Below are positions 1-5,243 of a stretch of 5,243 nt of DNA, one piece after another. Position 1 is the stretch's first letter. Every line of letters starts with the position of its first letter. Under the pieces are notes generated by a model that saw only the letters and a program-made list of their open reading frames with translations, did not search any database and was not told the origin of the DNA. The DNA is from a virus (taxonomy: Duplodnaviria; Heunggongvirae; Uroviricota; Caudoviricetes), in IMG/VR virus record IMGVR_UViG_2671180556_000001, positions 1 through 5,243 of that record; one strand, written 5' to 3'. Made by a program: the position numbers and the translations under genes.

Positions 1-123
1 AAGGCCAGCATGACTGAGCTTATCGAAATCATGTTCTGGTTCGGCTCAGAGCGCAACGTGCGGTGGAGTGATGACTCCTGGCGAGAGTATGAATGGTCAC
101 AACGAAAAGGGAGAGCTGCATGA
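1..123 (+). CDS. 3' end of an upstream gene, truncated by the window edge (frame 1 reads ...[37 protein letters not shown]); possibly ninB-like by position
   Basis: Frame 1 is open from position 1 to a TGA at 121-123, which overlaps the next gene's ATG at 120-122 (ATGA junction). The ninB assignment rests only on typical nin-region gene order, not on recognised sequence. Confidence 0.4.
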   Translation, partial: KASMTELIEIMFWFGSERNVRWSDDSWREYEWSQRKGRAA

Positions 124-647
124 CTATCAAATCAAATACGCCATCACACGACAAGGACTGCTGGCAAACGCCGCTTTGGCTTTTTGATGCACTGGATATT
201 GAGTTTGGATTCTGGCTGGATTCAGCTGCGAGCGACAAAAATGCTCTGTGCGCTCACTGGCTAACTGAGGCCGACGACGCGCTAAATTCTGAGTGGATAA
301 GCCACGGTGCAATCTGGAATAACCCACCGTACAGCAATATCAGGCCGTGGGTGGAAAAAGCCGCTGAGCAGTGCATACAACAGCGACAGACGGTAGTTAT
401 GCTTGTGCCAGAGGATATGTCAGTCGGATGGTTCAGCAAGGCTCTGGAGAGTGTCGACGAAGTTCGCATTATCACTGATGGACGGATTAATTTTATCGAA
501 CCATCGACAGGGCTGGAGAAGAAGGGAAACAGCAAAGGCTCCATGCTGCTGATTTGGCGACCGTTCATCAGTCCTCGACGAATGTTTACTACTGTATCCA
601 AAGCGGCATTGATGGCGATCGGGCAGGGCGTCAGGATGGCGGCATGA
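120..647 (+). CDS. Phage DNA N6-adenine methyltransferase (Dam-type orphan methyltransferase)
   Basis: The translation contains the catalytic NPPY motif (IWNNPPYSN) typical of N6-adenine methyltransferases, and the overall size fits the small phage Dam family. A GGGAGAG Shine-Dalgarno lies 6-7 nt upstream of the ATG at 120; the track's in-frame ATG at 93 lacks an RBS, so 120 is preferred. Stop is TGA at 645-647. Confidence 0.8.
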
Positions 648-826
648 GGCGACAGCGAAGAAGTATCACCGACATCATCTGCGAAAACTGCAAATACCTT
701 CCAACGAAACGCTCCAGAAATAAACGCAAGCCAATCCCAAAAGAATCTGACGTAAAAACCTTCAACTACACGGCTCACCTGTGGGATATCCGGTGGCTAA
801 GACATCGTGCGAGGAAAACAAGGTGA
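644..826 (+). CDS. ninE: NinE protein (60 aa, lambda nin region)
   Basis: The ATG at 644-646 overlaps the methyltransferase stop (ATGA). The product [60 protein letters not shown] matches my recollection of lambda-family NinE. The track ORF 554..826 is the same frame with a spurious N-terminal extension. Confidence 0.75.
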
Positions 827-916
827 TTGACGCGATGATTTATTCGGGGCTATATTCCTCACGCGCCAGCAAAATCTGGCGTCGGGATTAGCACCCCGGA
901 TATCGAAACGGTGCAT

Positions 917-937
917 AACCGCGCTGGCGGTTTTTTT
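917..937 (+). terminator. Candidate rho-independent terminator downstream of ninE
   Basis: Perfect 6-bp stem AACCGC (917-922) / GCGGTT (927-932) with a 4-nt loop GCTG, followed by a T run through 937. Confidence 0.5.
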
Positions 938-1101
938 ATGCGCTAAGCACAGTCACATTCGCGATTTATGGCGGGCTGTGTGGGGGAGCCGAAAGGCTCG
1001 CCGGATGTTTCGACCGGTAGTGCTAACCCCGCACAGTTCGCCACCACGATGATTAGCACCTGACGGTGGCGAGGTAAAAATTATCGAAACGCGAGGTCAT
1101 T

Positions 1102-1779
1102 ATGGCTGTTCAAATTTCTGTCGAAAACCTTTCCCCTGTTACCTATAACCAGATCCCCGTAATTACTACTGAACTGTTGGCTCACCTTTACGGAACAAAA
1201 ATCAAAAACATTTCTGATAACTTTCTGAACAACACGACGCGATTCATGCCCGGAAAGCATTACTTTAAAATTGAAAAAAACGAATTACGCGAGTTTAAGA
1301 ACAGACCCGAAACAATCGGGTTAGTTGGTAAAAATGCCCGCTCCCTCATCCTCTGGACAGAACGCGGCGCAGCCCGTCACGCAAAAATGCTCGAAACCGA
1401 TCAGGCGTGGGATGTGTTCGAAAAACTGGAAGACTGCTATTTCAGCCAGTGCGAGAAAAATACTGGCAAACAAGAGAAGAAGCTCAACGGGCTTTCCGCA
1501 AAAGAAACAGACAGCCTTGTATGGCTGTGGGATTATGCCAACCGCTCACAGGCATTGTTCCGTGAGTTGTATCCCGCATTAAAACTGATTCAGTCTGGCT
1601 ATTCCGGCATATGCCACGACTACGGCTATGAGTTCTCGTATATCATCGGGAGGGCGAGAGACGTTTTAATCAATCACACACGAGATGTTGATATTAATGA
1701 GCCAGACGGACCAACGAATCTTTCCGCATGGGTAAGGCTTAAGAACAAAGAATTACCTCCTTCACTACATCGCTACTGA
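1102..1779 (+). CDS. ORF6N/KilA-N-like domain protein (putative phage DNA-binding regulatory protein)
   Basis: 225-aa ORF with a GAGGT Shine-Dalgarno 5 nt upstream of the ATG. The N-terminal region ([16 protein letters not shown] ... [14 protein letters not shown]) resembles the ORF6N domain signature as I recall it. The C-terminal half is unassigned. Confidence 0.65.
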
Positions 1780-1796
1780 CAATTGACAACTTAACA

Positions 1797-1820
1797 AACC
1801 CAGCTTCGGCTGGGTTTTTT
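1797..1820 (+). terminator. Candidate rho-independent terminator after the ORF6N gene
   Basis: 8-bp stem AACCCAGC (1797-1804) / GCTGGGTT (1809-1816) with a TTCG tetraloop, running into a T tract that ends at 1820. Confidence 0.6.
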
Positions 1821-1853
1821 ATTGGTGAATTTTCAATATGAGAGGACATGACA

Positions 1854-2576
1854 ATGAACGAGCTGATAAATAGCAACGTCATCAAAATGACCAGCATTGA
1901 AATCTCTGAGCTTACAGGTAAGCGTCATGACAATGTGAAACGTACTATCGAAATGCTGGCTAAAAATGGTGTTATCCGACATCCTCAAATTGAGGATTGT
2001 GGAAGAATCAATGGGTTAGGCTTAAATCAAAGTTTTCGTGTGTATGTATTCGAAGGCGAACAAGGTAAGCGAGACAGCATTATTGTCGTTGCCCAGTTGT
2101 CGCCGGAATTCACCGCTCGTCTTGTTGACCGTTGGCGAGAGCTTGAAGACGCTGCGGTTAATATCCCCAAAACTCTACCAGAAGCGTTGCGCCTTGCTGC
2201 TGATCTTGCTGAGCAGAAAATGCAACTGGAAAACCAGCTCGCAATTGCCGCACCTAAAGTTGAGTTTGCCGATCGCGTTGGCGAGGCCAGTGGAATTTTG
2301 ATTGGAAACTATGCAAAGGTTGTTGGTATTGGTCCAAACAAACTGTTTGCGTGGATGCGCGAACACAAAATCCTTATTGCTTCAGGTTCCCGGCGCAATG
2401 TGCCAATGCAGGAATATATGGATCGCGGCTATTTCACAGTGAAAGAAACAGCGGTCAATACAAATCACGGAATACAGATATCGTTCACCACAAAAATCAC
2501 CGGGCGTGGTCAACAGTGGCTGACCAGAAAGCTGCTCGATAACGGAATGCTGAAAGTAACAGGGGAGGCTGCTTAA
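1854..2576 (+). CDS. Phage antirepressor-family protein (N-terminal Rha regulatory domain, C-terminal KilAC/Ant domain)
   Basis: The N-terminus carries the Rha-family motif ([22 protein letters not shown]) and the C-terminal half resembles antirepressor KilA-C domains ([14 protein letters not shown]...). GAGAGGA at 1840-1846 sits 7 nt before the ATG at 1854, whereas the track's ATG at 1848 is only 1 nt from it, so 1854 is preferred. Stop is TAA at 2574-2576. Confidence 0.8.
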
Positions 2577-3181
2577 TGGCTAAACCAGCGCGAAGGAAAT
2601 GCAAAATATGCAAGGAATGGTTTCACCCGGCATTCTCAAATCAGTGGTGGTGCTGCCCGGAACACGGAACTCAATTAGCACTCGAACGACGAAGTAAAGA
2701 ACGCGAAAAAGCGGAAAAAGCAGCAGAGAAGAAACGACGACGAGAGGAGCAGAAACAGAAAGATAAACTGAAGATTCGAAAACTCGCCTTAAAGCCCCGC
2801 AGTTACTGGATTAAACAAGCCCAACAAGCCGTAAACGCCTTCGTCAGAGAAAGAGACCGCGACTTACCATGTATCTCGTGCGGAACGCTCACGTCTGCTC
2901 AGTGGGATGCCGGACATTACCGGACAACTGCTGCGGCACCTCAACTCCGATTTGATGAACGCAATATTCACAAGCAATGCGTGGTGTGCAACCAGCACAA
3001 AAGCGGAAATCTCGTTCCGTATCGCGTCGAACTGATTAACCGCATCGGGCAGGAAGCAGTAGACGAAATCGAATCAAACCATAACCGCCATCGCTGGACT
3101 GCCGAAGAGTGCAAGACCATCAAGGCGGAGTATCAACAGAAACTTAAAAAACTGCGAAATAGCAGAAGTGAGGCTGCATGA
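2576..3181 (+). CDS. ninG: NinG (Rap) recombination protein, a Cys-rich structure-specific endonuclease family
   Basis: 201-aa product with Cys clusters ([10 protein letters not shown]...WCCPEHG; CISCG...[11 protein letters not shown]) and a basic Lys/Arg-rich linker, matching lambda NinG in size and features. The start overlaps the previous stop (TAATG) and is preceded by AGGGGAGG. Confidence 0.8.
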
Positions 3182-3849
3182 ATATCTACGAAAGAATTGA
3201 TGGCAGCAAATACCGAAATATTTGGGTAGTTGGCGATCTGCACGGATGCTACACGAACCTGATGAACAAACTGGATACGATAGGATTCGACAACAAAAAA
3301 GACCTGCTCATCTCGGTTGGCGATTTGGTTGATCGCGGTACAGAGAACGTCGAATGTCTGGAATTAATCACATTCCCCTGGTTCAGAGCTGTACGTGGAA
3401 ACCATGAGCAAATGATGATTGATGGCTTATCAGAGCGTGGAAACGTTAATCACTGGCTGCTTAATGGCGGTGGCTGGTTCTTCAATCTCGATTACGACAA
3501 AGAGATTCTGGCTAAAGCTCTTGCCCATAAAGCAGAAGAACTTCCGTTAATCATCGAACTGGTGAGCAAAGATAAAAAATATGTCATTTGCCACGCCGAT
3601 TATCCTTGTAACGAATACGAATTTGGAAAGCCAGTTGATCCTCTGCAGGTAATCTGGAACCGCGAACGAATCGGCAACTCACAAGACGGGATCGTGAAAG
3701 AAATTAAAGGCGCGGACACGTTCATCTTTGGTCATACGCCAGCAGTGAAACCACTCAAATTTGCCAACCAGATGTATATCGATACCGGCGCAGTGTTCTG
3801 CGGAAACCTCACATTGATTCAGGTACAGGGAGAAGGCGCGTGGGCATAA
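3178..3849 (+). CDS. Serine/threonine protein phosphatase (lambda phosphatase-like metallophosphoesterase)
   Basis: Metallophosphatase signature motifs are visible: GDLHG, GDLVDRG and GNHE. The N-terminal sequence ([35 protein letters not shown]) is close to lambda protein phosphatase as I recall it. The ATG overlaps the ninG stop (ATGA). Confidence 0.9.
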
Positions 3850-4328
3850 GAGAACTAAACCTCACCAAAGAACAGCACGAGTGGCTGAATGGCTGGCTTG
3901 AACTGTGGGGCGCATGGGTTTATTCAGGTCGTCTGGAAAAGCGCATGAGCAGCGTAATAGCGAAGTTCATGGAGAGCGTAGAGCCGGGAAGAGTTATGAC
4001 AAGGCCAATGTGTAATGATGATGATGGAATGTTGATTTCTCAGGTCGTCGATTCCGTCATGTACATTGACAAGAAAGCCTTCGGCATCCTCCTCAGCTAC
4101 TACGCTCATGGTTCTTCCAGGCACGCCATTGCATCTTACTATCATCGCGTCGCAAGACCTCGCAAGATGTTATGCCGGGGCGGCGGGCGCATTCAAAAAC
4201 CATCGCTCGCAACCTGTCGACGGGAAGTTGACGAAATCCTTAATGCCTCGTTGTTTATGATTTACCCGGTTCTGGATAGTGCGTTTAAAAACCGGAAACG
4301 TGTAGAGAAAATTAAACATGTAGCATAG
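3840..4328 (+). CDS. Q: Late-gene antitermination protein Q (non-lambda Q family, phage 82/21/Stx-phage type)
   Basis: The product carries the N-terminal LWGAWV motif that I recall from the small Q antiterminator family, and the gene sits directly upstream of a candidate late promoter. GGGAGAAGG at 3828-3836 precedes a GTG start at 3840, overlapping the phosphatase 3' end by 10 nt. The start is uncertain; the next in-frame ATG is at 3945. Confidence 0.7.
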
Positions 4329-4330
4329 AA

Positions 4331-4373
4331 CGTGTTGACATCATTGAGCAAATGAGCAACACTATTGGCATAA
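4331..4373 (+). promoter_or_regulatory. Candidate Q-dependent late promoter (pR'-like) and Q-engagement region
   Basis: A consensus -35 hexamer TTGACA lies at 4335-4340, just after the Q stop. I could not place a convincing -10 hexamer at 16-18 bp spacing (TATTGG at 4363-4368 and TAAGCT at 4371-4376 are at non-canonical spacing). The call rests on position plus the -35 match. Confidence 0.35.
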
Positions 4374-4418
4374 GCTGCCGTTAGTGACTCTTAAGTTGCA
4401 ACGGTGGCTTTTTTATTT
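4374..4418 (+). terminator. Candidate tR'-like intrinsic terminator
   Basis: 9-bp stem GCTGCCGTT (4374-4382) / AACGGTGGC (4400-4408) including two G-U pairs, a large 17-nt loop, then TTTTTTATTT (4409-4418). Confidence 0.45.
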
Positions 4419-4493
4419 GGGTCAGTCGTATAAAGGTCATTACGGAAGGCTGTTAACCTTCTTATCGTGGTTCGAGTCCACGCTGTCCCGCCA
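4419..4493 (+). tRNA. tRNA-Asn(GUU)-like gene, 75 nt including encoded CCA
   Basis: Manual cloverleaf: acceptor GGGTCAG/CTGTCCC (one T-T mismatch at pair 4-69), U8, D arm GTAT-AAAGGTCA-TTAC with G18/G19, perfect anticodon stem GAAGG/CCTTC with loop CTGTTAA (anticodon GTT), T arm CGTGG-TTCGAGT-CCACG, discriminator G, CCA. The anticodon loop and T loop resemble E. coli tRNA-Asn as I recall it. Confidence 0.55.
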
Positions 4494-4498
4494 AACAT

Positions 4499-4574
4499 GC
4501 TGGTTTAGCTCCAATGGTAGAGCAACTGACTTGTAATCATCAGGTCGCCAGTTCGATTCCGGTAGCCGGCACCA
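4499..4574 (+). tRNA. tRNA-Thr(UGU)-like gene with imperfect stems, 76 nt including CCA; possibly divergent or a pseudo-tRNA
   Basis: Acceptor GCTGGTT/AGCCGGC (7 pairs, two G-U), U8, canonical D arm GCTC-CAATGGTA-GAGC, anticodon loop CTTGTAA (anticodon TGT), T loop TTCGATT, discriminator A, CCA. The anticodon stem (ACTGA/TCATC) has only 3 Watson-Crick pairs and the T stem (GCCAG/CCGGT) has one A-C mismatch. Confidence 0.5.
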
Positions 4575-4577
4575 TAT

Positions 4578-4652
4578 GCGGGTACCGTATAATGGCTATT
4601 ACCTCAGCCTTCCAGGCTGATGATGCGGGTTCGATTCCCGCTACCCGCTCCA
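4578..4652 (+). tRNA. tRNA-Gly(UCC), glyT-like, 75 nt including CCA
   Basis: Perfect 7-bp acceptor GCGGGTA/TACCCGC, D arm GTAT-AATGGCTA-TTAC, perfect anticodon stem TCAGC/GCTGA with loop CTTCCAG (anticodon TCC), perfect T arm GCGGG-TTCGATT-CCCGC, discriminator T, CCA. The sequence is nearly identical to enterobacterial tRNA-Gly2 (glyT) as I recall it. Confidence 0.8.
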
Positions 4653-4665
4653 GATTTATTATCAG

Positions 4666-4688
4666 GCTCGCTTCGGCGGGCTTTTTTT
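4666..4688 (+). terminator. Rho-independent terminator after the tRNA cluster
   Basis: 6-bp stem GCTCGC (4666-4671) / GCGGGC (4676-4681) with one G-U pair and a TTCG tetraloop, followed by seven T (4682-4688). Confidence 0.6.
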
Positions 4689-4740
4689 GTATCTGCGTTA
4701 CACCATTAACTAATAAATCGAGTGCTTATCAGGAGGCTAT

Positions 4741-4965
4741 GTGAAAAAGCTGATGGTGACGATTGGTCCGTTCGAAACAGAAGTTAGTTTTCGTGTCGTT
4801 CAGGGGGAGAGTGTACTTGTTGAAGATGTATTTCATGGAAAATCAACAGGTCCTTATGTAAAAGAATATTTTGTCGACGCCACGGATGAAAATATTGAGG
4901 TGGTGTACGATTCCGTCAATCACCCTAATTTGATCATTAAGGCAAAATTGAAACCACTTTATTGA
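4741..4965 (+). CDS. Hypothetical small protein (74 aa), unknown function, in the cargo position downstream of the late promoter
   Basis: ORF with AGGAGG at 4731-4736 and a GTG start at 4741 (short 4-nt spacer); stop TGA at 4963-4965. I recognise no motif in the product. Confidence 0.5.
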   Translation: MKKLMVTIGPFETEVSFRVVQGESVLVEDVFHGKSTGPYVKEYFVDATDENIEVVYDSVNHPNLIIKAKLKPLY

Positions 4966-5017
4966 TCTGAGCGGGAGCAATCATAAAATATCTCTGGGTA
5001 CCCATAAGGAGATAAAT

Positions 5018-5227
5018 ATGTTTGTTGCTGAAGGGGTAATGGAAGATAAGGACAACAAAGGATGTGTTAAAGGTTGGGCTGTGGTAAGAAACTCGCCATG
5101 GCATCTTGTTGGGGTTTTTGCGACAGAGGAAGACGCGGAAATGGAAGCAAGAAAGACGGGAGATGAGTACGAGGTTCACTATGGCTCGCATCGAACAGGA
5201 AGTGATGATTTTGTCTGGGGGGAGTAA
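5018..5227 (+). CDS. Hypothetical small acidic protein (69 aa), unknown function
   Basis: Strong Shine-Dalgarno AAGGAG 7 nt upstream of the ATG at 5018; stop TAA at 5225-5227. The C-terminus is acidic (EEDAEMEARKTGDEYE). I recognise no confident family. Confidence 0.6.
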   Translation: MFVAEGVMEDKDNKGCVKGWAVVRNSPWHLVGVFATEEDAEMEARKTGDEYEVHYGSHRTGSDDFVWGE

Positions 5228-5243
5228 CAGTCGTTTAACCCCA

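Follow-up and report, generated by a model that had tools for sequence, protein, structure and literature searches.

A phage 21-type late-gene cassette directly precedes an apparently promoterless tRNA cluster in a lambdoid E. coli prophage

Introduction

In the viral DNA analysed here, a putative late-gene terminator ends one base before the first of three tRNA genes, which raises the question of how these tRNAs are made. They could be excised from a Q-antiterminated late transcript, arise by leak from a constitutive promoter, or come from both sources. The answer bears on whether temperate lambdoid phages match the timing of their tRNA supply to virion production, or whether they alter the lysogen's capacity for translation as well. 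Transcription antitermination has one of its textbook examples in the phage 21-type cassette; for the late region of phage 21 the primary reference is reportedly Guo, Kainz and Roberts (1991).

The adjacency of terminator and tRNA is already known, being annotated for phage 21 (terminator 39543-39590, tRNA-Asn from 39591) and for Sf6, and tRNAs "downstream of gene Q" were noted in SfI, Sf6, ST64T, PS3 and phage 21 (PMC3636060). The hypothesis that the tRNAs ride on the late transcript has likewise been voiced earlier and is not new. Modest additions of the present analysis are that the tRNAs stand with zero spacing at three unrelated terminators, that they contrast with an ileZ cluster bearing its own promoter, and that a second terminator brackets them in the window. 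Throughout, the window is the whole stretch of 5,243 nucleotides that was analysed (positions 1 to 5,243 of IMG/VR record IMGVR_UViG_2671180556_000001).

Results

Identity of the window and its Q gene

The window carries genes for an adenine methyltransferase, antirepressors, ninG, a NinI-type phosphatase and Q, followed by the tRNAs. A megablast search of positions 3840-4740 against phage records returned phage JLK-2012 at 100% identity and phage 21 at 96.5%, the JLK-2012 record being 100% identical to the window over 3840-4697. Over its full length the window is closest (96.4%) to a prophage in E. coli Z1323HEC0393 (NZ_CP148357.1), which adjoins the bio operon and has T3SS effector genes (NleG family, EspS) at its end. 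In the closest relative, accessory, lysis and then virion genes are found downstream of the corresponding region.

The gene at 3840-4328 on the plus strand encodes a Q antiterminator of the phage 21 type (Q21) of 162 amino acids, of which 161 are identical to phage 21 Q. The protein matches the solved Q21 structures PDB 6JNX and 6P18 over its full length (E about 1e-109) and the Pfam family Phage_antitermQ. In phage 21, Q is annotated as containing an antisense promoter, paQ, and a CII-binding site. Both map to window positions 4133-4165 on the minus strand, and a TTGC-N6-TTGC motif occurs on the same strand at 4152-4165, inside Q.

The late promoter and Q-binding element

Positions 4329-4418, immediately downstream of this Q21-family gene, were aligned with the phage 21 record OL657228. 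The two differ by one substitution (G4368 for C) and by one T fewer in the T-run, and the features annotated in OL657228, from the -35 through QBE, -10, start site, pause element and terminator to tRNA-Asn, can be carried over to the window nucleotide by nucleotide; equivalent annotations stand in the older phage 21 record AJ237660 and in the Sf6 record. All the sequence-level defining features of a phage 21-type Q cassette were tested, and every one was found in the window. By homology, the 4329-4418 segment is identified as a late-gene regulatory cassette of the phage 21 type, carried by a lambdoid prophage of E. coli.

The individual elements lie on the plus strand. The -35 hexamer of pR', TTGACA, occupies 4335-4340 and maps to the minus_35_signal "pR' late promoter" of OL657228. 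A consensus TTGACA after the Q stop codon had been pointed out in an earlier, sequence-only reading of this DNA, and it is indeed there, 7 nt past the stop. The -10 hexamer AACACT, assigned from the phage 21 annotation, lies at 4358-4363 with a 17-bp spacer to the -35. Between the two hexamers of this sigma-70 promoter, the Q-binding element (4343-4358) consists of two tandem 8-bp direct repeats, ATTGAGCA (QBEu) and AATGAGCA (QBEd), which match the QBE annotated in phage 21 exactly (also PMC8022706). According to Shi et al. (PMC6606751), C:G pairs at -21 and -13 of the QBE subsites are required for antitermination; they correspond to C4349 and C4357 in the window, both present.

The late transcription start (+1) was assigned to A4370 from the phage 21 annotation, an assignment that fits both the -21/-13 numbering used in PMC6606751 and the "aRNA" feature of AJ237660, whose 50 nt in phage 21 begin at the start site and include the whole T-run as their end. 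It is followed at 4371-4377 by the sigma-dependent pause element with its -10-like TAAGCT. The full string TAAGCTG equals the annotated phage 21 SDPE and is identical in phage 21, Sf6, BTP1, SE16 and JEP4.

The TTGACA hexamer alone is not above chance, with 3 occurrences in the window against 3.8 expected, and a generic promoter scan of the window did not call pR'. The latter result is ascribed to the weak -10, which matches the consensus at 3/6 positions, and reflects a threshold limit rather than evidence of absence. The significance of the arrangement derives from homology, not from consensus matches: the composite at 4329-4418 is not a chance assembly because it is nearly identical to the experimentally characterised pR'-tR' of phage 21. 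The identification as pR'/tR', which the sequence-only reading had advanced conditionally, is borne out by the same near-identity to the characterised elements (PMC6606751; bioRxiv 10.1101/651190).

The tR' terminator

The predicted intrinsic terminator tR' extends over 4372-4418 on the plus strand, with a hairpin at 4372-4410 followed by T6-A-T3, and is annotated in phage 21, Sf6 and Nil2. The hairpin, whose G-C core spans 4374-4408, has 17 pairs, one bulge and a 4-nt loop. In the RNA the stem, located past the pause site, is followed by U6AU3, and the whole matches 21tR' except for one T fewer. The transcribed leader (4370-4418) is 49 nt long and comprises only the pause element, the hairpin and the U-tract; its folding energy is -20.2 kcal/mol (z = -4.8) and 0/200 shuffles fold as well.

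A generic terminator scan of the window did not call tR', because its stem is bulged; this too marks a threshold limit and does not speak against the terminator. When 11 distinct variants of the 21-type hairpin were tested for covariation, 97% of cells were paired and 0 compensatory pairs appeared, with no excess over shuffles; the signal is absent because the hairpin copies are nearly identical. As covariation adds nothing, the tR' assignment rests on thermodynamics and on published phage 21 biochemistry, in which 21tR' served as a Q-sensitive terminator in vitro (PMC6606751).

The tRNA cluster and the second terminator

Three tRNA genes follow on the plus strand, all encoding CCA and all above the Rfam gathering score of 29: tRNA-Asn (GTT) at 4419-4493 (55.3 bits), a variant tRNA-Thr (TGT) at 4499-4574 (49.0 bits) and tRNA-Gly (TCC) at 4578-4652 (55.4 bits). 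The boundary drawn earlier, with hairpin and T-run reaching 4418 and the tRNA starting at 4419, coincides with the positions on which ARAGORN and Rfam agree. The earlier count of three tRNAs also holds. ARAGORN finds tRNA-Asn and tRNA-Gly and misses the middle tRNA-Thr, yet the latter is recovered by Rfam and is annotated as tRNA-Thr in JLK-2012 and RefSeq.

The tRNA-Asn is identical in phage 21, Sf6, BTP1 and HK446. The anticodon stem of tRNA-Thr is weakened by two mismatched pairs (ACTGA/TCATC), while in one IMG/VR tRNA-Thr variant, among the matches listed, the partner strand is the intact TCAGT. The window's gene agrees with phage 21 tRNA-Thr in the 5' half but not in the 3' half and thus looks like a chimera; the tRNA may be impaired and its function is uncertain. 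The same tRNA-Thr sequence occurs at least 9 times among the IMG/VR copies, the window and its closest relatives.

A second intrinsic terminator was found by the terminator scan at 4664-4688 on the plus strand, with an 8-bp stem, a TTCG loop and T7 (dG -11.9 kcal/mol, z -2.3). It begins 12 nt past tRNA-Gly, so the cluster is bracketed by two terminators. Rfam matches to Plastid-ycf2, TarB and isrB over the tRNA-Gly/terminator region were dismissed, as they score far below the gathering scores.

Two small ORFs with strong ribosome-binding sites lie past the second terminator, at 4741-4965 (74 aa) and 5018-5227 (69 aa), in the position of accessory genes between tRNAs and lysis genes. They match PHROG 2571 (positions 100-171 of the 291-position profile only) and PHROG 4280, both families of unknown function, and a Pfam search of the two ORFs gave no hit.

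Promoter survey at the terminator-tRNA joint

No sigma-70 promoter was called between tR' and tRNA-Asn in the window, nor in phage 21. The end of the stem is only 8 nt from tRNA-Asn and the spacing between T-run and tRNA is zero; no promoter fits between tR' and the tRNA, since the whole 49-nt leader is taken up by pause element, hairpin and U-tract. The earlier remark that the tRNAs have no visible promoter of their own thus stands on sequence grounds, the leader containing no promoter-like site, and a tRNA cassette without its own promoter is supported.

An independent promoter that escaped recognition, for instance one overlapping the hairpin and T-run or located inside the first tRNA, would place the cluster beside the ileZ-argN-argO genes of phage Sp5, where such a promoter does exist in a lambdoid late region (PMC7547250); the corresponding TTGCAA-17-TATTAT is found in Nil2. 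The authors of the phage L study left open whether its tRNAs are excised from late mRNA or have their own promoter (PMC8022706), and a weak promoter can go unnoticed by the generic scan, which overlooked the true pR' as well. In the window, however, the short stem-to-tRNA gap leaves little room and the scan offered no candidate. When 4389-4418 was read by eye, -10-like strings were seen in the T-run, but they have no -35 partner at 16-18 bp. An own promoter for the tRNAs is therefore regarded as very improbable, the more so in view of the joints described below.

The IMG/VR collection was scanned with the first 27 nt of the window's tRNA-Asn as query, which returned at least 119 copies. Among the matches listed, a hairpin and T-run directly precede tRNA-Asn in 119/119 viral contigs. 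The hairpin is of the phage 21 type in about 101 of the 119 matches listed. Upstream of these 21-type hairpins, again among the matches listed, lie the phage 21 QBE (about 39), the Sf6/L/BTP1-type QBE (about 54), a minor variant or an HNH gene (6). A lambda-type tR' stands before tRNA-Asn in 17 of the 119 matches listed, as in HK446, behind a lambda-type Q and pR', and in 1 of them the same zero spacing is seen behind a third late-region terminator, which is unrelated and differs in the sequence of its T-run. As tRNA-Asn abuts three unrelated terminators without any spacing (among the matches listed), there is no shared upstream DNA in which a common promoter could reside.

The phage 21-type terminator also occurs without a following tRNA, in JEP4, HK629 and SE16, so the tRNA cassette behaves as an optional promoterless insert placed exactly at the end of the late terminator. 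We tentatively extend this to the proposal, which may well be correct although we would not yet favour it over its negation, that Asn(-Thr-Gly) forms a promoterless mobile module, always set with zero spacing behind a late terminator's U-tract, and this in three or more unrelated systems, whose output would come from leak in lysogens and from Q during lytic growth. If so, RNase P cleavage at U4418/G4419 would free the same leader of about 49 nt as termination does, and a second terminator, as here, would make the tRNAs a separately gated compartment of the late operon.

In HK629 (148-744), and in six IMG/VR loci among the matches listed, an HNH endonuclease gene ends immediately before the 21-type hairpin. 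A lambda-type pR' is annotated about 550 nt upstream in HK629, and the gene there appears to lie between the late promoter and its terminator.

The juxtaposition could in principle be functionless, a recurrent recombination joint of mosaic lambdoid genomes with the tRNAs as decaying passengers. The two anticodon-stem mismatches of the middle tRNA, the truncated tRNA-Asn remnant at the same joint in Stx2c phages and the TTTTTTATTT string common to lambda-type and 21-type joints are what such an origin would leave behind. Decay is hard to reconcile, though, with a tRNA-Asn showing 100% conservation among phages that share only 80-86% DNA identity in their Q genes, or with tRNA-Asn and tRNA-Gly that score 55 bits and encode CCA, and the third terminator type keeps the zero spacing despite its different T-run. 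We give this explanation scarcely any credence.

Possible Q-dependent and leak expression of the tRNAs

With an own promoter set aside, the tRNAs could be made mainly by Q-antiterminated transcription and so be tied to the lytic programme, as the sequence-only reading had proposed; this is plausible. On a 21PR'-21tR' template in vitro, read-through rose about 2-fold with Q21 and about 10-fold with Q21 and GreB, and read-through of tR' was measurable without Q (PMC6606751). Basal read-through is not negligible, because Q alone, in reactions lacking GreB, gave only the 2-fold rise. The promoter pR' is constitutive in lambda, and the same is predicted for Stx phages; terminated leader RNAs are made by lysogens of lambda, 21, 82, phi80 and P22 (PMC7547250). 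With a constitutive pR', any leak through tR' would yield Q-independent tRNA, and the second terminator at 4664-4688 could confine that leak to the tRNAs.

Expression data bearing on this point come from phage BTP1, whose pause element, tR' and tRNA-Asn are identical to those of the window. In BTP1 lysogen cultures, the two tRNAs were set apart when loci above 100 TPM were listed, implying that their values lie above it as well; the late genes were low, and the holin next to the tRNAs had a TPM of about 5-48 (PMC7067206). The tRNA level fits a leak and equally fits stable tRNA that accumulates from the 0.2% of cells undergoing spontaneous induction. The supplements of PMC7067206 hold no tRNA TPM values, and literature searches on BTP1 tRNA start sites and on the ileZ/argN/argO promoters returned nothing relevant.

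The same elements could thus be read as making the tRNAs effectively lysogen-expressed, with a constitutive pR' and incomplete termination at tR' that would keep stable tRNA at a steady level in each lysogenic cell, a second terminator that stops unmodified polymerases short of the accessory and lysis genes, and Q as a late boost. The constitutive promoter, the Q-free read-through measured in vitro, the bracketing of the window's cluster and the grouping of the BTP1 tRNAs with highly expressed loci, behind an identical tR'-tRNA junction, all point in this direction. Nevertheless, tR' combines a strong hairpin (-20 kcal/mol) with a good U-tract. Moreover, a terminator scan detected no terminator in the phage 21 interval between the tRNAs and the holin gene, so a leak there would carry polymerases into the lysis genes. 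The BTP1 data, in turn, are confounded by spontaneous induction and RNA stability, and standard RNA-seq is unreliable for tRNA quantification. Predominant expression in the lysogen is accordingly judged unlikely, and the amount of tRNA that terminator leak would supply there is a matter of inference.

Codon usage was also considered. The 96%-identical prophage of Z1323HEC0393 uses ACA and GGA, the codons of the Thr and Gly tRNAs, more often than do ten host genes that flank it. Their codon-family fractions are higher in early genes (0.31/0.31) than in late genes (0.18/0.14). Codon demand does not single out the late genes, because ACA and GGA are commoner in the early ones.

Discussion

Taken together, we consider it probable that the window carries a phage 21-type cassette followed by a promoterless tRNA insert, which would be read via Q21 antitermination and acquire its 5' end by RNase P cleavage. 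Alignment shows each DNA element of this predicted route to correspond to a characterised phage 21 element, with neither space nor recognisable signal for another promoter. The sigma-70 promoter pR' (TTGACA, 17 bp, AACACT) would initiate at A4370, and RNA polymerase would pause at the -10-like element, at +2 to +8. When Q is absent, the hairpin and U-tract would stop transcription about 46-49 nt past the start and yield a leader RNA of about 49 nt. With Q21, encoded just upstream, two protomers would bind the direct repeats at 4343-4358 and load onto the paused polymerase.

The Q21 nozzle, or torus, which one of the protomers forms, is known to narrow the RNA exit channel and to prevent formation of the terminator hairpin (bioRxiv 10.1101/651190; PMC6606751), and its presence at the exit channel would block the tR' hairpin here, so that Q-dependent read-through of the window's terminator is predicted. 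The Q-modified polymerase would then proceed through tR' into tRNA-Asn, tRNA-Thr and tRNA-Gly, and on through the terminator at 4664-4688 to the accessory and lysis genes, presumably with a Q-dependent burst of tRNA synthesis. RNase P would cut between U4418 and G4419 and free the 5' end of tRNA-Asn. The sequence-only reading had likewise assigned the 5' ends to RNase P; this is the standard expectation, with U at -1.

The closest known system is phage 21 itself (OL657228/AJ237660; Yin et al. 2019; Shi et al. 2019), which has the same cassette with the terminator one base before the same tRNA-Asn. The window adds a tRNA-Gly (TCC), a variant tRNA-Thr, the second terminator and the two small ORFs before the lysis genes, whereas in phage 21 the holin gene lies about 120 nt past tRNA-Thr. 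The P22-like phages Sf6, L, ST64T and BTP1, with Q21-family gp23/gp59, have an identical pause element, tR' hairpin, T-run and tRNA-Asn with zero spacing, and the Sf6 record annotates promoter, qut site, tR' and tRNA-Asn as "similar to phage 21". Their QBE repeats (AATTAKCC/ATTTAGCC) and -10 (CATAAT) differ from those of the window, differences that match the diverged C-terminal part of their Q.

Lambda follows the same logic in its pR'-6S RNA-tR' region, where the promoter is constitutive, RNA polymerase makes a sigma-dependent pause, Q is loaded and the leader RNA is a terminated one. It differs in having a Q of an unrelated family, a leader of about 190 nt compared with 49 nt in the window, and no tRNAs. 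In HK446-like phages, however, a lambda-type tR' abuts the same tRNA-Asn as in the window.

The Stx2a phages 933W and Sp5 (pR'-StxS-tR'-ileZ-argN-argO-stx2) likewise have tRNAs just downstream of Q, pR' and tR', and a leader that is a small RNA. Unlike those of the window, their tRNAs are separated from tR' and have a mapped promoter of their own (PMC7547250). In Nil2, the TTGCAA-17-TATTAT promoter lies 9 nt upstream of ileZ-argN-argO and matches the transcription start site mapped in phage Sp5 (PMC7547250). The 933W/Sp5 leader is 258 nt long and is processed to the Hfq-binding sRNA StxS. Compared with regulatory sRNAs of the StxS/lambda 6S type, the 50-nt "aRNA" of phage 21 is almost wholly terminator stem, with little single-stranded seed left.

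Stx2c phages combine the two arrangements, pR'21-tR' being joined to a truncated tRNA-Asn and to the ileZ-argN-argO cluster. Nil2 (locus 791-1014) and E. coli O157:H7 E32511 (locus 8814-9128) keep pR'21-tR' and the first 24 nt of tRNA-Asn; this remnant is followed by an annotated IS285-like insertion and then by ileZ-argN-argO, with its own promoter, just upstream of stx2. The Stx2c-type arrangement is a truncated remnant of the one seen in the window. Because the same module controls stx2c in E. coli O157:H7, the basal leak of pR'21-tR' bears on toxin expression as well.
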